Below are positions 6,001 to 15,000 of a stretch of 64,000 nucleotides of DNA, piece after piece. Position numbers: made by a program. Every line of letters starts with the position of its first letter. Position 1 is the first letter of the stretch. Source of the stretch: an uncultured bacterium (GTDB taxonomy: Bacteria; Omnitrophota; Omnitrophia; Omnitrophales; Aquincolibacteriaceae); contig CAYLPP010000006.1 of the NCBI GenBank assembly GCA_964385615.1, positions 38,214 through 102,213 of the forward strand, read 5' to 3'.

Positions 6001-9000
6001 CGTCGCGAGAATCAAGTTTGGGCGCCTGAAGAAACTGGAACTTGGCAACCTTGACGCGCGCCGGGACTGGGGATTTGCCGGGGATTATGTCCGCGCCATG
6101 TGGCTGATGCTTCAGCAGCCGAAGCCGAAAGATTATGTTGTCGCGACCGGAGAATCTCATACCGTCAAAGAATTCGCCCAAACCGCTTTCGCTCACGCGG
6201 GACTTGATTGGAAAAAGTACGTCACAGTTAATAAAGCGCTTTACCGCCCGGCGGAAGTTTTCACGCTTCGCGGCGACATTGCGCCGGTACAAAAATATCT
6301 GAAATGGAAACCTACAGTCACATTCCGTCAGCTTGTGAAGATGATGGTGGATGCTGATCTGAGGCGGTACTCAACCCTCCCAAATTCGTGAAAAAGGTTT
6401 TGATCACGGGAGCCTCGGGATTCTGGGGCTCACATCTCATTCCGTATTTGAATTCCCGGGGTTACCGGGTTTACGGCGCTTGCCGTCACCCTGGGAAAAA
6501 CCTTCCGCGCGGGACTAAGCCTGTGGTGATGGACATTCGAAATCCGAAGGATGTGGATGCTGTCATCAGGCGCCTTAAGCCGGATGTCATTTGCCATCTC
6601 GCGGGGCAGAGCAGTGTCAGCAAAGCATGGAAGCTCCCTGAAAAAACTCTTCAGCTTAACACTTTAAGCACGGTTTTTCTTCTTAACGCGATCCGCGCCT
6701 TCAGCCCCAAAACCCGGTTCCTATTAGCTTCTTCGATTCATGTTTTTGGAGGAACCTTCTATAAAACGAGAAGACCTCTGCGCGAGCAGGATACAACACT
6801 CCCTGACAACCCCTACGGGGCCAGTAAACGCCTTGCGGAACTTGTCTGCCTTGATTTCGCTCAACGTTACGGCCTGGATTGCGTCATGATGCGCCCTGTG
6901 AACTGTATCGGGCGCCATCTTTCTCCGCATTTTGTCTTTTCCGACTGGGCCCGGCAAATCGCGGATAGTGAAAAAACGCCCGGACATTCGATACTGACCG
7001 TGGGGAACCTGAAACTTCGCCGGGATTTTCTGCATATTTCGGATGCCGTCCAAGCTTGTGAAATCTTGATCCGCAAAGGGAAACGGGGAGAAATTTATCA
7101 TCTTAGCAGTCAGCGGGATGTTCCGCTCAGGGTCTACGCGGAGTTTCTGGTGAAATCTGCCCGCGTTCCGGTTAAAATCCGCGTGGACAAAAAACGTTTC
7201 AGGACCTCCGACCCGGTAACCACCCGAATCTCTTCGGCGAAACTGAGAAAGCTCGGATGGCATCCCGAAAAAACGGCTTTGCAGGGTCTTAAAGATTTAC
7301 TCGATGAATGGAGAAAGAAATTAAAATGAACGCTCCTTTGAACCTTTCGGTCATCATTCCCGCGTATAATGAAGCTCTTCGTCTGCCTGCGTCTCTCAGG
7401 CAAATTGTGAGTTTCCTGCGTCAGCAGAAATTTTCATCGGAAGTGATTGTCGTGGATGACGGAAGCCAGGATCAGACTTGTGAACTGGCAGCTTCGGCCC
7501 TGGAAGGTTTTCCGCACCGGATTTTAAAAAATCCCGGCAACCGGGGGAAGGGGTATTCCGTGCGCTCCGGGATGCTCGCCGCGGACGGAGAGTATCTGCT
7601 TTTCAGCGACGCTGACCTCTCAACACCGATCGAAGAAGTCCTTCCATTTCTCGGGCACCTTCAGGCCGGCTATGACGTGGTTTTGGGTTCCCGCGCCCTT
7701 GACCGTTCGGCGGTCGAAGTGCGTCAGAATTTTCTCCGGGAACTGATGGGGAAAACTTTCAACCGGATTGCTCAGCTTCTCACGTTCAAAGGGATCAAGG
7801 ATTCTCAGTGCGGGTTCAAGGCTTTTCGAAGAGAAGCGGGGAAAGATCTCTTCAGCCGTCAGAAACTTGAAGGTTTCGGCTTTGACGTGGAAATCGTGTA
7901 TCTGGCACAGCGTCTCGGATACAAGATTCTGGAAGCCCCGGTTATCTGGCGTAATTCCACGCAGAGTAAAGTCCGGATTTTCTCAGATTCTCTGAATATG
8001 TTCCTGGATCTTCTCCGAATCCGCTGGTCGCACCGCCTTCTGAAAGGAAAATGAAGATCCACCGCGCGGTCCTGCCGGCCCTGATTCTGATTTTGGGGTT
8101 CGCTTTGCGCTTCTATGGCGTATCTTTCGGCCTTCCTCATCTTTACCACGCGGATGAACCGATCGTCGTCAATCACGCCCTGGCCTTCGGAAGCGGGGAT
8201 TTGAACCCTCACTTCTTCAAAATCCCGCCGTTAGTCAGCTACCTTCTTTTTCTGATTTATGGCGTTGTTTTTTGCGCCGGGAAAATCATGGGCCTTTTCG
8301 CCGATTCTTCCGCGTATGAAAAATTCTTTTACGCCAATCCCGGTTTCTTTTATTTGACCGCCCGCGTTGTTTTTGGGGTTTTGATGGGAACAGCCGGGCT
8401 CTATGCTTTTTGGCGCGTCCTGAAGCGCCATTTTTCCCCCGAAACCGCGATGACCAGTTTTTTTATTTTTTCGGTTTGCTTTCTTCATGTCCGGGATTCT
8501 CATTATGTTTACGCCGATATTCCGCTGATGCTTGTCATGATTATTGCCTTTGGAGCCTTCTTCGATCTTCAGGAAGCTCCTTCGTTCCGTAAGCATCTGG
8601 AGGCAGGCGCCCTGATAGGTTTAGCCGCCGCGGTGAAATACAATGGAACCGCTTTGATCATTCCTTATCTGGCCGCCTCTTTTCTGTCGTCCCGGAAAAT
8701 GGACATCAAAGGCTGGATTGCCGCGGCTATGACCGCCGGCCTCGTTTTTATTCTTCTGAATCCCTTTTCTGTTTTGGACCCCCGGTTTTTCATAAGTGAG
8801 CTTCGGTCGCAAGCCGCCGCGCAAGGGGGGACACCCGCCTGGCACCATCTGACCTACTCACTGGCCGGAGGCGCCGGCTGGCCCGTTTTGGCGGCCTGTC
8901 TAGGCGGAATCATCATTTCAATAAGAAGCAGACGGCCTAAACCTCTTATATTTCTCAGTTTTCTCGCGGCTTATTACCTGATTCTAGTCAAAGCCGGTCA

Positions 9001-12000: not shown

Positions 12001-15000
12001 TTCGGAAGAAGATTACCGCCAAAAAGCCCGAGGGTATTATGAGGCGGTTCTCCAGACTCTGGATTTCAATCAGCGGGATGCCCGTAACCAATTTGCGCTT
12101 TTATCGATTCTTCTGGCTTTCTGCCTGGTTCTTTGTGTCCGCCCGCGGCCGGGCCGTGTTTTCGCCGTCTTGATAACGGCTTTCCTGATCGCGGATCTTT
12201 ATTTGTACGGCTTTACCAGCATCAAAGCAGGGGAAGAACCTTTTGACACGATTGATGTTCCTGGAAAATCTTCGATTATTGATTATTTAAAAAAAGATGG
12301 GGATTTGTTCCGGGTGATGGAGGTCTATGAAAAACCTGAGGAAAACCGGTTATTTCCCATATTTCCAAGCTGGAATATGCTGGATCATATTCAGGATACG
12401 GGTGCTTATTCTCCGCTTGTCATGAAAGCTTATAAAAATTTCATGACTGGAATCGGTTATATCAATGATTCACTGTCCGTTTTATTTGTGGATCCCGCAA
12501 AACTTAAAGAGCGTCGAACGGATTTGGATTTCTTGAATGTGAAATACCTGCTCAGCCGGGAACCGCTTAACCTTCCTGATTTAGAGCCCGTCCTGACGGA
12601 AGGGGATGTCACTCTTTATCAGAATAAAACCGTCCTACCCCGGTTTTATTTTTTACCCGCGAAAGATTCTTTTGAAAAACCGGACCGCGCCAATATCCGG
12701 CCTGTTAGCGTTGATCAGTACTGGGACACTCAGATTAAGGTTCATTTTGAGGCTCCGGAGGACGGAAACCTTGTAAGCTCTGAACTTTATTACCAGAGCT
12801 GGACGGCTCAGACAAATGGGCATGAAGGCAAACTCTACCGTATCCGTAATCTTTTCCGCGCGGTGCAGGTACTCAAAGGGAGCAACGAAATTGTGATTGA
12901 GTACGAAACCGGAATCTTTAAAACGGCCGGCGTCACGGCCCTTTTTGTTTTTATCTTTGGACTTGCCGAGATGCTATTGGCCTCCCGGCGCGCGAGACTG
13001 CAAAATCCGATATGAAATCACTCACGCCTCTTCTTTGGGCTTTTCTGGTTCTCGGCTTTTATCTCGTCTCACTGTGGGGCGCTAAAGCATCGGCGCTTAT
13101 GGGGGGAGGATGATTCTAGCAGGCGGTGCTGTAATCCTTTACCTGGCTTTCGCTCTGGGAAGGCGCTGTCTTCTTTTAACCGGATGCCGTTTTGGCACTG
13201 TTGAAGAATGGGCAGCGGCTTCACTTGCCGGATTTGGCATCTTGGCCTACGCGGTTCTTATCTTGGGATTATCCGGGCTCTTGACCGCTTTAACTCTCAG
13301 CGTGCTCCTTGCCGGCCTCGCCGTGACTTCTTTTGTTTCCTTAAAACAGGATATAAGTCTGTTTGGGAAAATTTTGGTTCCGCGCGGAATTCTCAAGAAC
13401 CCCTTTAATCTGGCGGTCCTTTTCCTGGCCGCCGCCGCGCTTTTGGCCGGTCTGGCTGGCGTTCTTGCCCCTGAAACCGCTAACGACTCACTTTGCTATC
13501 ATGTGAATCTTCCTAAAATCTATCTTCAGGCCGGGCGTATTTTTCATGTTCCATATGATACGAATTCACCATTTCCGCTTCTGATGGAAATGCTTTACAC
13601 GCTGGCTCTTGCTTTCCGTTCCATGAGTCTCGCGAAATTTTTTCATTTTTCCACGGCTTTGCTGACCGCGGGACTGATCGCGTCAACGGTTCGCCGCTAC
13701 AGCGGTTCTATCCAGGCCGGAATCGGCTCTGCCATTTTATTCATAACTACTCCGGTTATTTTAAATCAGCTGGGAACGACTTATGTGGACGCCGCCCTGG
13801 GAGCTTTCGGCTTCGTCTCTTTTATTTTCCTTCTCCGCTGGGCGGAAGATCCGGAGCGTCAAACCGGATTTCTGACACTGGCCGGAATATTCGCGGGATT
13901 CGCTCTTAGCGTCAAGTACCTGGCTTTGATTTCGATTCTTATTTCCGGTTTTTTAATTCTCTGGGTTTCTTTTTCCAGAAAACCTTCGTCCTTCTTTAAA
14001 AATTTCCTCCTTTTTTCGGTTCCTGTGCTGATTTTCGGCGGGTATTGGTACCTCCGCGCCTGGATTGAAACCGGGAATCCGGTTTACCCTTATTTCGCGT
14101 CTATTTTCGGATCCGGGGACGCGTCCGTTCATTACGACGATATCGGAGTTCCTAGAACTTTTATTTCTTTCCTCACGGCGTTCTGGAAGGTGACCATGAA
14201 TCCTCAGCTTTTTGAGGGCTTCGGCGTCCAGATCGGTCCGGGATATCTCGCGTTTCTGCCTTTAAGTTTCGCGGTGACGGCTCGAAACACCTCTTTGCGG
14301 TGGATGTGGGCCTACGCGTTTCTTTTTTTTACGGCATGGTTTCTTTTGGGACAGAGTTTACGGTTTTTAGCGCCTGTTCTTCCGGTTCTGGCTGTTTTAA
14401 TTGGGTGCGGTTTCGCGGATCTTAAAAAAAGCTGGGCTGAAAAGCTATTCAAGGTTCTTTTAGTCCTGACTCTGGCCCTCCACGCGGTATTAGGTGTTTA
14501 TCATTACCGCCGGGATTTTAAAACCGCAGCCGGACGGGAAACCGCTTCCGATTACTTGAACAAATACGAGCGCAGTTACCGGATGGCCGAATACGTGAAT
14601 TCCAATCTTCCTCCCGGGGCCGTTATTCTCAATGCAGATGAAACCCATATGTTTTATTTTCAGCGTAAAATGATCCGGGAAACCGTTTACGTTCTTATGG
14701 GCGAAAACTATTGGGCTGACGCGTCTTCACCGGCCGGGGTCATTCAGAATTTAAAAAAGAGGGGATTTACGCACATTCTCCGGGCGGCGAGGACCCGGCT
14801 TTTGGGAAAAAGTTTTGAAGACCAGCCTTTGCGGATTTTCTCGATTCTGGACACGCCCCAAAATCAACTTGCCTCCGTTTTGAATCCCCTTTACACTTAT
14901 TCGTTTACCGACGAAGAAGGAATTGAATTCACTTACAAGCTCTACGAGATTCTATGAAAATAGCTTTGATTGACTTAAAAGAAACAGCTTCCGGGTGTAA

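Follow-up and report, generated by a model that had tools for sequence, protein, structure and literature searches.

We analysed a 64-kb stretch of DNA from an uncultured bacterium (assembly GCA_964385615.1; the window), which forms a plus-strand glycan island, and describe here a group of its genes encoding two glycosyltransferases of family GT2 that resemble polyprenyl-phosphate-sugar synthases and three membrane-embedded glycosyltransferases of the GT-C superfamily, one of them belonging to the YfhO family. Named homologs come overwhelmingly from metagenome-assembled genomes (MAGs) of Candidatus Omnitrophota, the lineage of the window; these are widespread, mostly uncultured and very small bacteria, some of them described as host-dependent. 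The genes fall into two units, A and B, whose glycosyltransferase-bearing parts are listed here, with lengths in amino acids (aa) and transmembrane abbreviated as TM.

5411..6391, plus strand: Gmd, GDP-mannose 4,6-dehydratase, first gene of unit A (Pfam GDP_Man_Dehyd, 6.1e-125)
6388..7329, plus strand: Rmd-like GDP-4-keto-6-deoxy-D-mannose reductase, a short-chain dehydrogenase/reductase (SDR); best solved relatives are Rmd structures
7326..8054, plus strand: GT2_1, polyprenyl-phosphate-sugar-synthase-like GT2, 242 aa (PF00535, 1.4e-27)
8051..9727, plus strand: GTC_1, PMT_2-family GT-C glycosyltransferase, 558 aa (PMT_2, 3.2e-10; PMT, 3.3e-6)
9728..9859, no strand: intergenic gap of 132 nt between units A and B, with a promoter-like site at 9764-9792
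9860..10726, plus strand: GT2_2, CsbB/GtrB/AglJ-like polyprenyl-phosphate-sugar synthase, 288 aa (PF00535, 4.2e-27)
10736..13015, plus strand: YfhO-family GT-C glycosyltransferase, 759 aa (PF09586, 1.6e-31)
13012..13113, plus strand: open reading frame (ORF) for a 33-aa single-TM micro-protein (MKSLTPLLWAFLVLGFYLVSLWGAKASALMGGG), with ATGA overlaps to YfhO upstream and GTC_3 downstream
13110..14957, plus strand: GTC_3, third GT-C (PMT/GT22-like), 615 aa (PMT, 4.4e-7; Glyco_transf_22, 3.1e-5)

Within unit A, Gmd, the Rmd-like SDR, GT2_1 and GTC_1 are joined by overlaps that can be read directly from the sequence (GTGA at 6388-6391 between Gmd and Rmd, ATGA at 7326-7329 between Rmd and GT2_1, and ATGA at 8051-8054 between GT2_1 and GTC_1). 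A first-pass annotation of this DNA had pointed to the last of these overlaps, which is real and is accompanied by the further one that ties GT2_1 to the upstream SDR. The four plus-strand ORFs it had paired as GT2 plus GT-C also lie where it placed them and belong to the families it named, with PF00535, PMT_2/PMT, PF00535 and PF09586 all above their Pfam gathering cut-offs. It had, however, drawn the second unit as a simple pair, whereas unit B comprises one GT2, two GT-Cs, the micro-protein, a radical S-adenosylmethionine (radical-SAM) enzyme, an SDR and AsnB, whose genes either overlap or lie a few nucleotides apart: GT2_2 is followed after 6-9 nt by YfhO, the 33-aa ORF, GTC_3 and the radical-SAM gene (ATGA overlaps at 13012, 13110 and 14954), and after a further 3 nt by the SDR and AsnB. 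The YfhO start most likely lies at ATG 10736, in agreement with a 100%-identical database protein (P0001); the earlier length of 760 aa from 10733 thus gives way to 759 aa, while the assignment of this protein to the YfhO family and the GT-C fold was borne out.

The gap at 9728..9859 is one of seven in the window longer than 60 nt. It contains the best match to a sigma-70-like promoter in the 5-20 kb region (TTGACA-17-TATCCT, 10/12 positions), which is a consensus match only; scanning this region returned one good promoter-like site, and terminator-like sites were not enriched. Together, the gap and the predicted promoter lend weak support to a separation of units A and B.

Protein families and folds of the synthase-like GT2s and the GT-C enzymes

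Both GT2s score far above the PF00535 gathering cut-off of 23.3 bits (97.1 bits for GT2_1 and 95.6 bits for GT2_2). Compared with sequences in the Protein Data Bank (PDB), GT2_1 matches PfDPMS (5.5e-18), ArnC (1e-15) and GtrB (4.6e-12), and these proteins, with ArnC represented by three species, score 6-12 orders of magnitude better than other GT2s. In the case of GT2_2, ArnC and PfDPMS (6e-12) have a clear lead, with GtrB (~1e-6) ranking below two other GT2s. The D95-A-D97 motif of GT2_1 and the D90-A-D92 motif of GT2_2 align with the DAD of PfDPMS and ArnC; the latter is invariant in 11 orthologs, and in GT2_1 the residues D44 and D45, D95-x-D97 and D159-x-Q-C-G-F-K are invariant in 16 orthologs. 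Among NCBIfam models, GT2_1 matched ArnC, AglJ, PgfS and PpgS, each under its curated cut-off, and GT2_2 gave a full-length match to AglJ (1.8e-35) as well as one to a dolichyl-phosphate (Dol-P)-hexose transferase (3e-29). These sequence comparisons support the assignment of both GT2s to the polyprenyl-phosphate-monosaccharide-synthase type.

Both GT2s had been expected to carry a DxD motif and a C-terminal TM anchor. The motif is present in both, and GT2_2 has two C-terminal TM helices (226-257 and 259-284), but GT2_1 has neither a hydrophobic segment nor a TM anchor. We rejected the idea that this refutes a synthase identity for GT2_1, which aligns over nearly the full length of the PpgS model (positions 4-218 of 226). 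Synthases of the polyprenyl-phosphate-sugar type without TM helices do exist, as in the case of PpgS and DPM1.

The partner of GT2_1, GTC_1, scores above gathering for both PMT_2 (40.9 versus 26.1 bits) and PMT (27.3 versus 22.7 bits), and its homologs in Omnitrophota carry the NCBI names 'glycosyltransferase family 39 protein' or 'phospholipid carrier-dependent glycosyltransferase'. When its AlphaFold2 (AF2) model, which has a predicted local distance difference test score (pLDDT) of 90.3 and a predicted template modelling score (pTM) of 0.90, was compared with the PDB using Foldseek, the top 47 matches were all GT-C-fold membrane proteins, led by ALG12 (TMt 0.63) and ALG9, both from structures solved with Dol-P-Man bound, and followed by STT3, ArnT (TMt 0.48), PglB and Pmt4. 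After TM1, the first periplasmic loop carries the motif H33-A-D35-E36-P, which is unchanged across 30 sequences. The first-pass description of this protein as GT39/ArnT-like holds at the level of the superfamily; the specific kinship with GT39 or ArnT does not, since its predicted fold lies nearer to ALG12 and ALG9 and none of GTC_1, YfhO and GTC_3 matched a solved PDB chain in phmmer searches at E<=1. GTC_1 is, on its modelled fold, a GT-C enzyme, assigned at superfamily level only.

The YfhO protein of the window matches PF09586 with 109.9 bits against a cut-off of 28.5, over profile positions 6-593 of 835, and its homologs are named 'YfhO family protein' by NCBI; remoter relatives occur in Planctomycetia including Scalindua, Auribacterota, Patescibacteria, Chloroflexota and others. 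Its AF2 model (pLDDT 90.8, pTM 0.90) consists of a helical membrane region up to about residue 495, a periplasmic domain at residues 500-723 and a final TM helix at 726-756. The top 19 Foldseek matches in the PDB are all GT-C enzymes (STT3, ArnT, AftD, DPY19, PglB, EmbC and Pmt4), with probabilities of ~1.0 and TM-scores of 0.3-0.5. The periplasmic domain, of about 220 residues, is beta-rich and divergent, leaving the C-terminal part of the PF09586 profile (593-835) unmatched, and shows some local fold matches to carbohydrate-binding or glycosidase domains at weak probabilities; a likeness of this sort has also been suggested for Staphylococcus aureus YfhO (PMC8035078). GTC_3 has multiple TM segments. 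Acidic residues just after TM1 are kept in all three GT-Cs: D35/E36 in GTC_1, D34 together with E71 in YfhO (near-invariant and invariant among orthologs, respectively) and D126 in GTC_3, which is invariant in 18 orthologs.

A database protein of 863 aa (P0351; positions 10001-12592 of the orthologous locus L085) unites a GT2_1 ortholog and a GTC_1 ortholog in a single polypeptide. Its N-terminus is 60% identical to GT2_1 and 26% identical to GT2_2, and the GTC_1 part is 43% identical to GTC_1. This natural fusion supports the notion that GT2_1 and GTC_1 work together.

Conservation of the array across Omnitrophota loci

To describe the surroundings of YfhO orthologs, we counted upstream neighbours in the 23 loci whose upstream flank was 3 kb or longer and downstream neighbours in the 19 whose downstream flank was 2.5 kb or longer; orthologous loci are labelled L0nn and database proteins P0nnn. 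GTC_1 lies near YfhO in 17/23 loci, GT2_1 in 14/23 and GT2_2 in 10/23, and GTC_3 is the most constant downstream neighbour (13/19). Other GT-Cs are therefore more constant companions of YfhO than the CsbB-like GT2 is. The gene order of the window recurs in L004, L006 and L013, where YfhO is 63, 50 and 44% identical, and with an inserted reverse GT2 in L007, L009 and L023; L012 and L085 contain the same eight functions in shuffled order (GT2_2-SDR-AsnB-GT2_1-GTC_1-GTC_3-radical SAM-YfhO). Since the same order recurs at YfhO identities of 44-63% and the same set recurs shuffled, the arrangement is not due to chance. Planctomycetia loci keep GT2_1-GTC_1-YfhO. In L001, the block YfhO-peptide-GTC_3-radical SAM-SDR-AsnB is kept with no GT2 within 10 kb upstream of YfhO, and L001, L005, L083 and L084 all have GT-Cs with the GT2 placed differently. 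A different radical-SAM gene, of the B12-binding kind, takes the position of the CsbB-like GT2 immediately before YfhO in L001 (8432-9967, 511 aa), L005, L019-L021, L025, L034 and L040.

These counts bear on the suggestion, made in the first-pass annotation, that the two units are autonomous, complete modules, the second being a dedicated CsbB+YfhO pair with a function like that of the teichoic-acid systems, directed at another polymer. GT2_2 does have the architecture of CsbB, with a GT-A domain, a DxD motif and two TM helices at the C-terminus; only 6-9 nt separate it from YfhO, a gap with a promoter-like site precedes it, and its direct adjacency to YfhO recurs in about seven loci (L004, L006, L007, L009, L013, L014 and L023). 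However, a GT2_2-like gene is absent from 13 of the 23 loci, where the B12-radical-SAM gene or GTC_1 precedes YfhO instead, so that a conserved pairing of the CsbB-like GT2 with YfhO is not supported; in L012 and L085, GT2_2 stands beside the SDR and AsnB, with YfhO beside the radical-SAM gene and GTC_3. In the window itself, the unit runs on past YfhO through ATGA overlaps into the micro-protein and then GTC_3 as a second GT-C, positions 593-835 of the YfhO profile, its periplasmic part, are unmatched, and no flippase gene is present that would make the modules complete. We therefore regard two self-contained modules as unlikely.

GT2_2 is far better conserved than the genes around it: when YfhO identity is 61-64%, that of GT2_2 is 90%, and when the former is 37-40%, the latter is about 70%. 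Within Omnitrophota it falls into more than 100 clusters at 68-90% identity, with adjacent GT-Cs going down to 37-64%, and an exact-sequence look-up found no copy of the window protein on record. This conservation fits a donor synthase shared by faster-evolving transferases.

Observed here are the gene content, the protein families with their folds and conserved acidic residues, the coupling within the operons, the synteny and the fusion protein, and we consider it likely that the region represents the core of a conserved Omnitrophota array for extracytoplasmic glycosylation from lipid-linked monosaccharides.

The micro-protein, the putative tailoring genes and a proposed model of the array

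The 33-aa ORF, which matches no Pfam family, is apparently a genuine gene. In 10 further loci a hydrophobic ORF of 31-44 aa occupies its position, W9 is invariant and Y17 and K25 are conserved at 90% or above, and public pipelines called it as a gene in L001 and L084. Counterparts lie at 12304-12420 in L001, 12330-12434 in L084, 16359-16526 in L024 and 9163-9270 in L031. When a hidden Markov model (HMM) of the micro-protein was run against 10,605 small ORFs, the three best matches outside the training set lay directly upstream of GTC_3 orthologs away from YfhO, and in L085 a similar small ORF also precedes GTC_3. The micro-protein thus travels with GTC_3, and a tie to YfhO was rejected on the same evidence. 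We also rejected a fusion of the micro-protein to GTC_3 in the loci that lack a separate ORF (L011, L021 and L025), where GTC_3 starts with its own TM1. The peptide may be a small subunit of GTC_3.

Downstream of GTC_3, unit B continues with three further genes:

14954..16261, plus strand: radical-SAM enzyme of the AprD4/HpnJ type (Radical_SAM, 5.7e-17; ATGA overlap with GTC_3)
16265..17158, plus strand: SDR, HpnA-like sugar epimerase/reductase (Epimerase, 8.7e-25)
17146..19032, plus strand: AsnB-type glutamine-dependent amidotransferase (Asn_synthase, 2.1e-97; GATase_7, 1e-44)

The best solved relative of the radical-SAM enzyme is the diol dehydratase AprD4 (6fd2, 3.3e-28; next 3e-7), and its NCBIfam matches to HpnJ-like (1.1e-53) and AprD4-like (7.7e-35) models are both under the cut-off, as is the match of the SDR to the HpnA-like model (1.1e-23). 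AsnB passes TIGR01536 (499.5 against a cut-off of 267) and scores 568 with the XrtA/PEP-CTERM amidotransferase model, under its cut-off. The radical-SAM gene is kept after GTC_3 in L001, L005, L006, L008 and L013, the SDR is syntenic with the radical-SAM gene and AsnB, and the block 14954-19032 as a whole is kept with YfhO and GTC_3 across Omnitrophota loci. The radical-SAM and SDR genes recall AprD4/AprD3, a sugar deoxygenation pair, and we speculate that the three enzymes could tailor a sugar by AprD4/AprD3-like deoxygenation and amidation of a uronic acid.

In unit A, the SDR is closest among solved structures to Rmd (2pk3, 8.6e-43; Pseudomonas aeruginosa Rmd, 6x3b, 4.3e-40), well ahead of the next class (2e-24), and together with Gmd it would yield GDP-D-rhamnose. 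In the model that we favour, GT2_1, as a peripheral enzyme of the DPM1/PpgS type, and GT2_2, as a membrane-anchored enzyme of the AglJ/GtrB/CsbB type, would each load one nucleotide-sugar-derived sugar onto polyprenyl phosphate at the cytoplasmic face; the lipid-linked sugars would be flipped by a protein encoded outside the window, and in the periplasm GTC_1, YfhO and GTC_3 with its 33-aa partner peptide would move them onto an acceptor glycan. Unit A probably delivers D-rhamnose or mannose, because of its Gmd-Rmd coupling and the similarities of its enzymes to DPMS and ALG9/12. In unit B, GT2_2 probably feeds both YfhO and GTC_3, and the radical-SAM enzyme, the SDR and AsnB may tailor the sugar. 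A more detailed version, in which unit A makes polyprenyl-phosphate-D-rhamnose from GDP-D-rhamnose and GTC_3, with the micro-protein as a dedicated subunit and possibly in a heteromer with YfhO, is fed by GT2_2 with an undescribed lipid-linked deoxy or amido donor tailored by the radical-SAM/SDR pair and AsnB, is one to which we give little credence as a whole. Complexes that can be likened to the GTC_3/YfhO part of this idea include Ost4 in the oligosaccharyltransferase (OST), EmbA-EmbB and Pmt1-Pmt2.

Several observations weigh against the array as we read it. The Foldseek TM-scores of the window GT-C models to solved GT-Cs are modest (0.4-0.6), and neither GT2_1 nor GT2_2 reaches an NCBIfam equivalog cut-off, the best being GT2_2 against AglJ at 122.7 bits (cut-off 325), so that neither can be given a specific donor sugar. 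L004 and L013 share the link of Gmd-Rmd to GT2_1; in L005 a GT2_2-like gene comes after Gmd-Rmd where GT2_1 would stand, and in L007, L009 and L023 a different SDR precedes GT2_1. The tailoring role is argued from distant similarity and gene position only. The Pfam families of the window proteins include no GtrA/GtcA-type or other dedicated flippase, and the window gaps longer than 60 nt hold just the 33-aa peptide and ORFs for SxtJ and DUF5989. A flippase could be encoded elsewhere in the genome. In L083, an LPG_synthase_TM (MprF-type, flippase-like) membrane protein is encoded at 7179-8129 amid GT2 and GT-C genes, and is a candidate for the flippase not encoded in the window. Finally, lipid A or core, a protein, or a polymer whose genes lie elsewhere could just as well serve as acceptor.

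The missing equivalog matches, along with the great breadth of PF00535, would also suit a scenario in which the GT2s are ordinary cytoplasmic chain-builders, the multi-pass proteins are polymerases, ligases or transporters, and their adjacency merely reflects the generic clustering of glycan genes. This scenario is hardly tenable in our view: the top solved relatives of both GT2s are polyprenyl-phosphate-monosaccharide synthases, ahead of chain-building GT2s, a GT2::GT-C fusion exists in P0351, and the models show GT-C folds with conserved acidic residues in the first loop.

The probable acceptor glycan and comparison with known systems

The array lies in an island rich in enzymes of the same kinds. 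The window holds four synthase-like GT2s (at 7326, 9860, 21744 and 53837) and about nine GT-C-type proteins (8051, 10736, 13110, 23310, 43010, 44614, 47637, 50573 and 52111). The rest of the island encodes nucleotide-sugar genes, a nonulosonic-acid pathway, Wzx, Wzy_C-type proteins, GT4s, a GT9 heptosyltransferase and an initiating phosphoglycosyl transferase (Bac_transf), with UDP-sugar dehydrogenase and epimerase genes upstream. All on the plus strand, four further groups of genes can be distinguished. Downstream of unit B, 19159-24845 encodes a DegT aminotransferase, an SDR, a GNAT acetyltransferase, a TM-less synthase-like GT2 (21744), a methyltransferase and a PMT_2-like GT-C (23310), which suggests a third, Arn-like module with a lipid-linked N-acylated amino sugar as donor. 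The interval 25039-37479 carries a nonulosonic-acid pathway of the pseudaminic/legionaminic type (PseB-like, DegT, NeuB, a CMP-sugar cytidylyltransferase, WbqC and PIG-L), together with a radical-SAM/SPASM enzyme, a carbamoyltransferase and a 333-aa protein (30131) without a Pfam match. At 43010-54646 there is a dense run of GT-C-type genes (DUF2079, an LA_3751/3752-like protein, a weak Wzy_C-like protein, GT87, two PMT_2 and two GDSL) that ends in the fourth synthase-like GT2 at 53837, and 56845-59248 contains a second carbamoyltransferase followed by small membrane ORFs for SxtJ (58664-59074, 3.9e-8) and DUF5989 (59090-59248, 3.4e-27).

The acceptor is most likely a glycan made by the rest of this 64-kb island, resembling lipopolysaccharide (LPS)/O-antigen or capsule, because the island has a phosphoglycosyl transferase, Wzx, Wzy_C-type proteins, GT4s and a GT9 enzyme. 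The precedent of CsbB and YfhO glycosylating teichoic acids in Firmicutes, invoked in the first-pass annotation, is correct (PMC5836110, PMC8035078), as was its placement of this DNA outside that lineage. A teichoic acid is itself an unlikely acceptor here, given the Omnitrophota lineage and the GT9 heptosyltransferase in the window, which points to LPS.

The same chemistry might instead be directed at lipid A or the LPS core, as an ArnC/ArnT- or RgtE/RgtA-D-like modification. GTC_1 falls into PMT_2, the family of ArnT, which is also among its fold matches, ArnC is the top or near-top match for both GT2s, the window has the upstream UDP-sugar dehydrogenase/epimerase genes and the GT9 heptosyltransferase, and several GT-Cs per synthase is the pattern of the Rgt system (PMC7663294). 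We nevertheless consider this option improbable, as the window GT-Cs show no sequence-level match to ArnT, no lipid A phosphatase or deacylase genes are found among the window proteins, and the beta-rich periplasmic domain of YfhO, at about 220 residues, fits a polymer acceptor better (cf. PMC8035078). Protein O-glycosylation, in which GT2_1 and the PMT-family GT-Cs would mannosylate or rhamnosylate secreted or S-layer proteins in the manner of Ppm1/Pmt in Actinobacteria, seems very improbable. The PMT and PMT_2 matches with an invariant Asp-Glu in the first loop, DPMS as the best solved relative of GT2_1 and Pmt4 among the fold matches of GTC_1 would all be in line with it; the PMT matches are weak, though (27-30 bits), ALG12 and ALG9, to which the fold of GTC_1 is closest, have glycans as their acceptors, the genes sit in a polysaccharide island with Wzx, Wzy and a phosphoglycosyl transferase, and the window contains no candidate Ser/Thr-rich target protein.

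The families described here are already annotated as such in Omnitrophota MAGs, and the mechanism is of a known kind, so the array leaves the established mechanistic picture unchanged. The literature we searched, which returned nothing on GDP-D-rhamnose with GT-C enzymes and undecaprenyl, and generic mentions only of Omnitrophota glycosyltransferases, seems to contain no description of the conserved array of several GT-Cs, of the GT2::GT-C fusion or of the micro-protein linked to GTC_3. The four synthase-like GT2s and roughly nine GT-Cs in 64 kb suggest that Omnitrophota invest heavily in assembling or decorating periplasmic glycans from lipid-linked monosaccharides, with a conserved core array that sets a YfhO-type enzyme between PMT-like GT-Cs. 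To our knowledge, YfhO-type enzymes have so far been studied only on teichoic acids; if our reading of a conserved array holds, the acceptor range of the family would extend to a bacterium with LPS-type genes, the natural GT2::GT-C fusion would offer a handle for biochemistry, and a conserved micro-protein would be added to the partners of bacterial GT-Cs.

Among known systems, CsbB/YfhO, together with GtcA, attaches GlcNAc to lipoteichoic or wall teichoic acid in Bacillus subtilis, S. aureus and Listeria monocytogenes (PMC5836110, PMC8035078), and B. subtilis YfhO crosses the membrane with about 13 helices, the last two of which flank a large extracytoplasmic loop (PMC5836110). In the window, as in this system, a GT2 that has a GT-A domain, a DxD motif and a C-terminal pair of TM helices is encoded immediately before a PF09586 protein, in which a membrane region of many helices is followed by a large extracytoplasmic loop and the last TM helix. 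The window differs in the length of this loop (about 230 aa, compared to 389 aa in B. subtilis) and the unmatched C-terminus of the Pfam profile, in its Omnitrophota setting with an LPS-type heptosyltransferase and no GtcA/GtrA gene in the window, and in an operon extended by a micro-protein, another GT-C and putative tailoring enzymes, with a GT2-YfhO adjacency that is inconstant among orthologs (10/23).

In Gram-negative bacteria, GtrA/GtrB/GtrX glucosylate the O-antigen, and ArnC/ArnT and RgtE/RgtA-D,F modify lipid A and core. We know of no YfhO-type GT-C that is part of the Gtr, Arn or Rgt systems. All three are precedents for coupling a polyprenyl-phosphate-sugar synthase to GT-Cs (PMC8035078, PMC7663294), and RgtE is an example of one synthase serving several GT-Cs, namely RgtD and RgtF (PMC7663294). 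The window resembles them in combining synthases with periplasmic GT-Cs in a diderm, and for both GT2s the best solved relatives include ArnC and GtrB; it differs in that it reaches no equivalog threshold, shows no sequence similarity to ArnT and contains neither GtrA nor ArnE/F.

Mycobacterial and corynebacterial envelope assembly combines the synthases Ppm1 or PpgS with PimE, GT87 mannosyltransferases, Emb and Aft enzymes, of which EmbA-EmbB is heteromeric. The TM-less GT2_1, which aligns over nearly the full PpgS model, and the many GT-Cs in one region, including GT87 and DUF2079, are reminiscent of this system, whereas the phylum and envelope are different, the similarities are at family level only and no arabinan or mannan genes were identified.

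The eukaryotic and archaeal Dol-P-sugar pathways pair synthases such as DPM1, ALG5 and AglJ with ALG9, ALG12, PMT and STT3. Here the setting is bacterial and the donor lipid presumably of the undecaprenyl type; the likenesses lie in the fold of GTC_1, best matched by ALG12 and ALG9, in the full-length AglJ match of GT2_2 and in DPMS as the best relative of GT2_1. They extend to Ost4, the 36-aa subunit of OST, which the tiny single-pass peptide encoded with GTC_3 resembles in size and topology, with no sequence kinship claimed.

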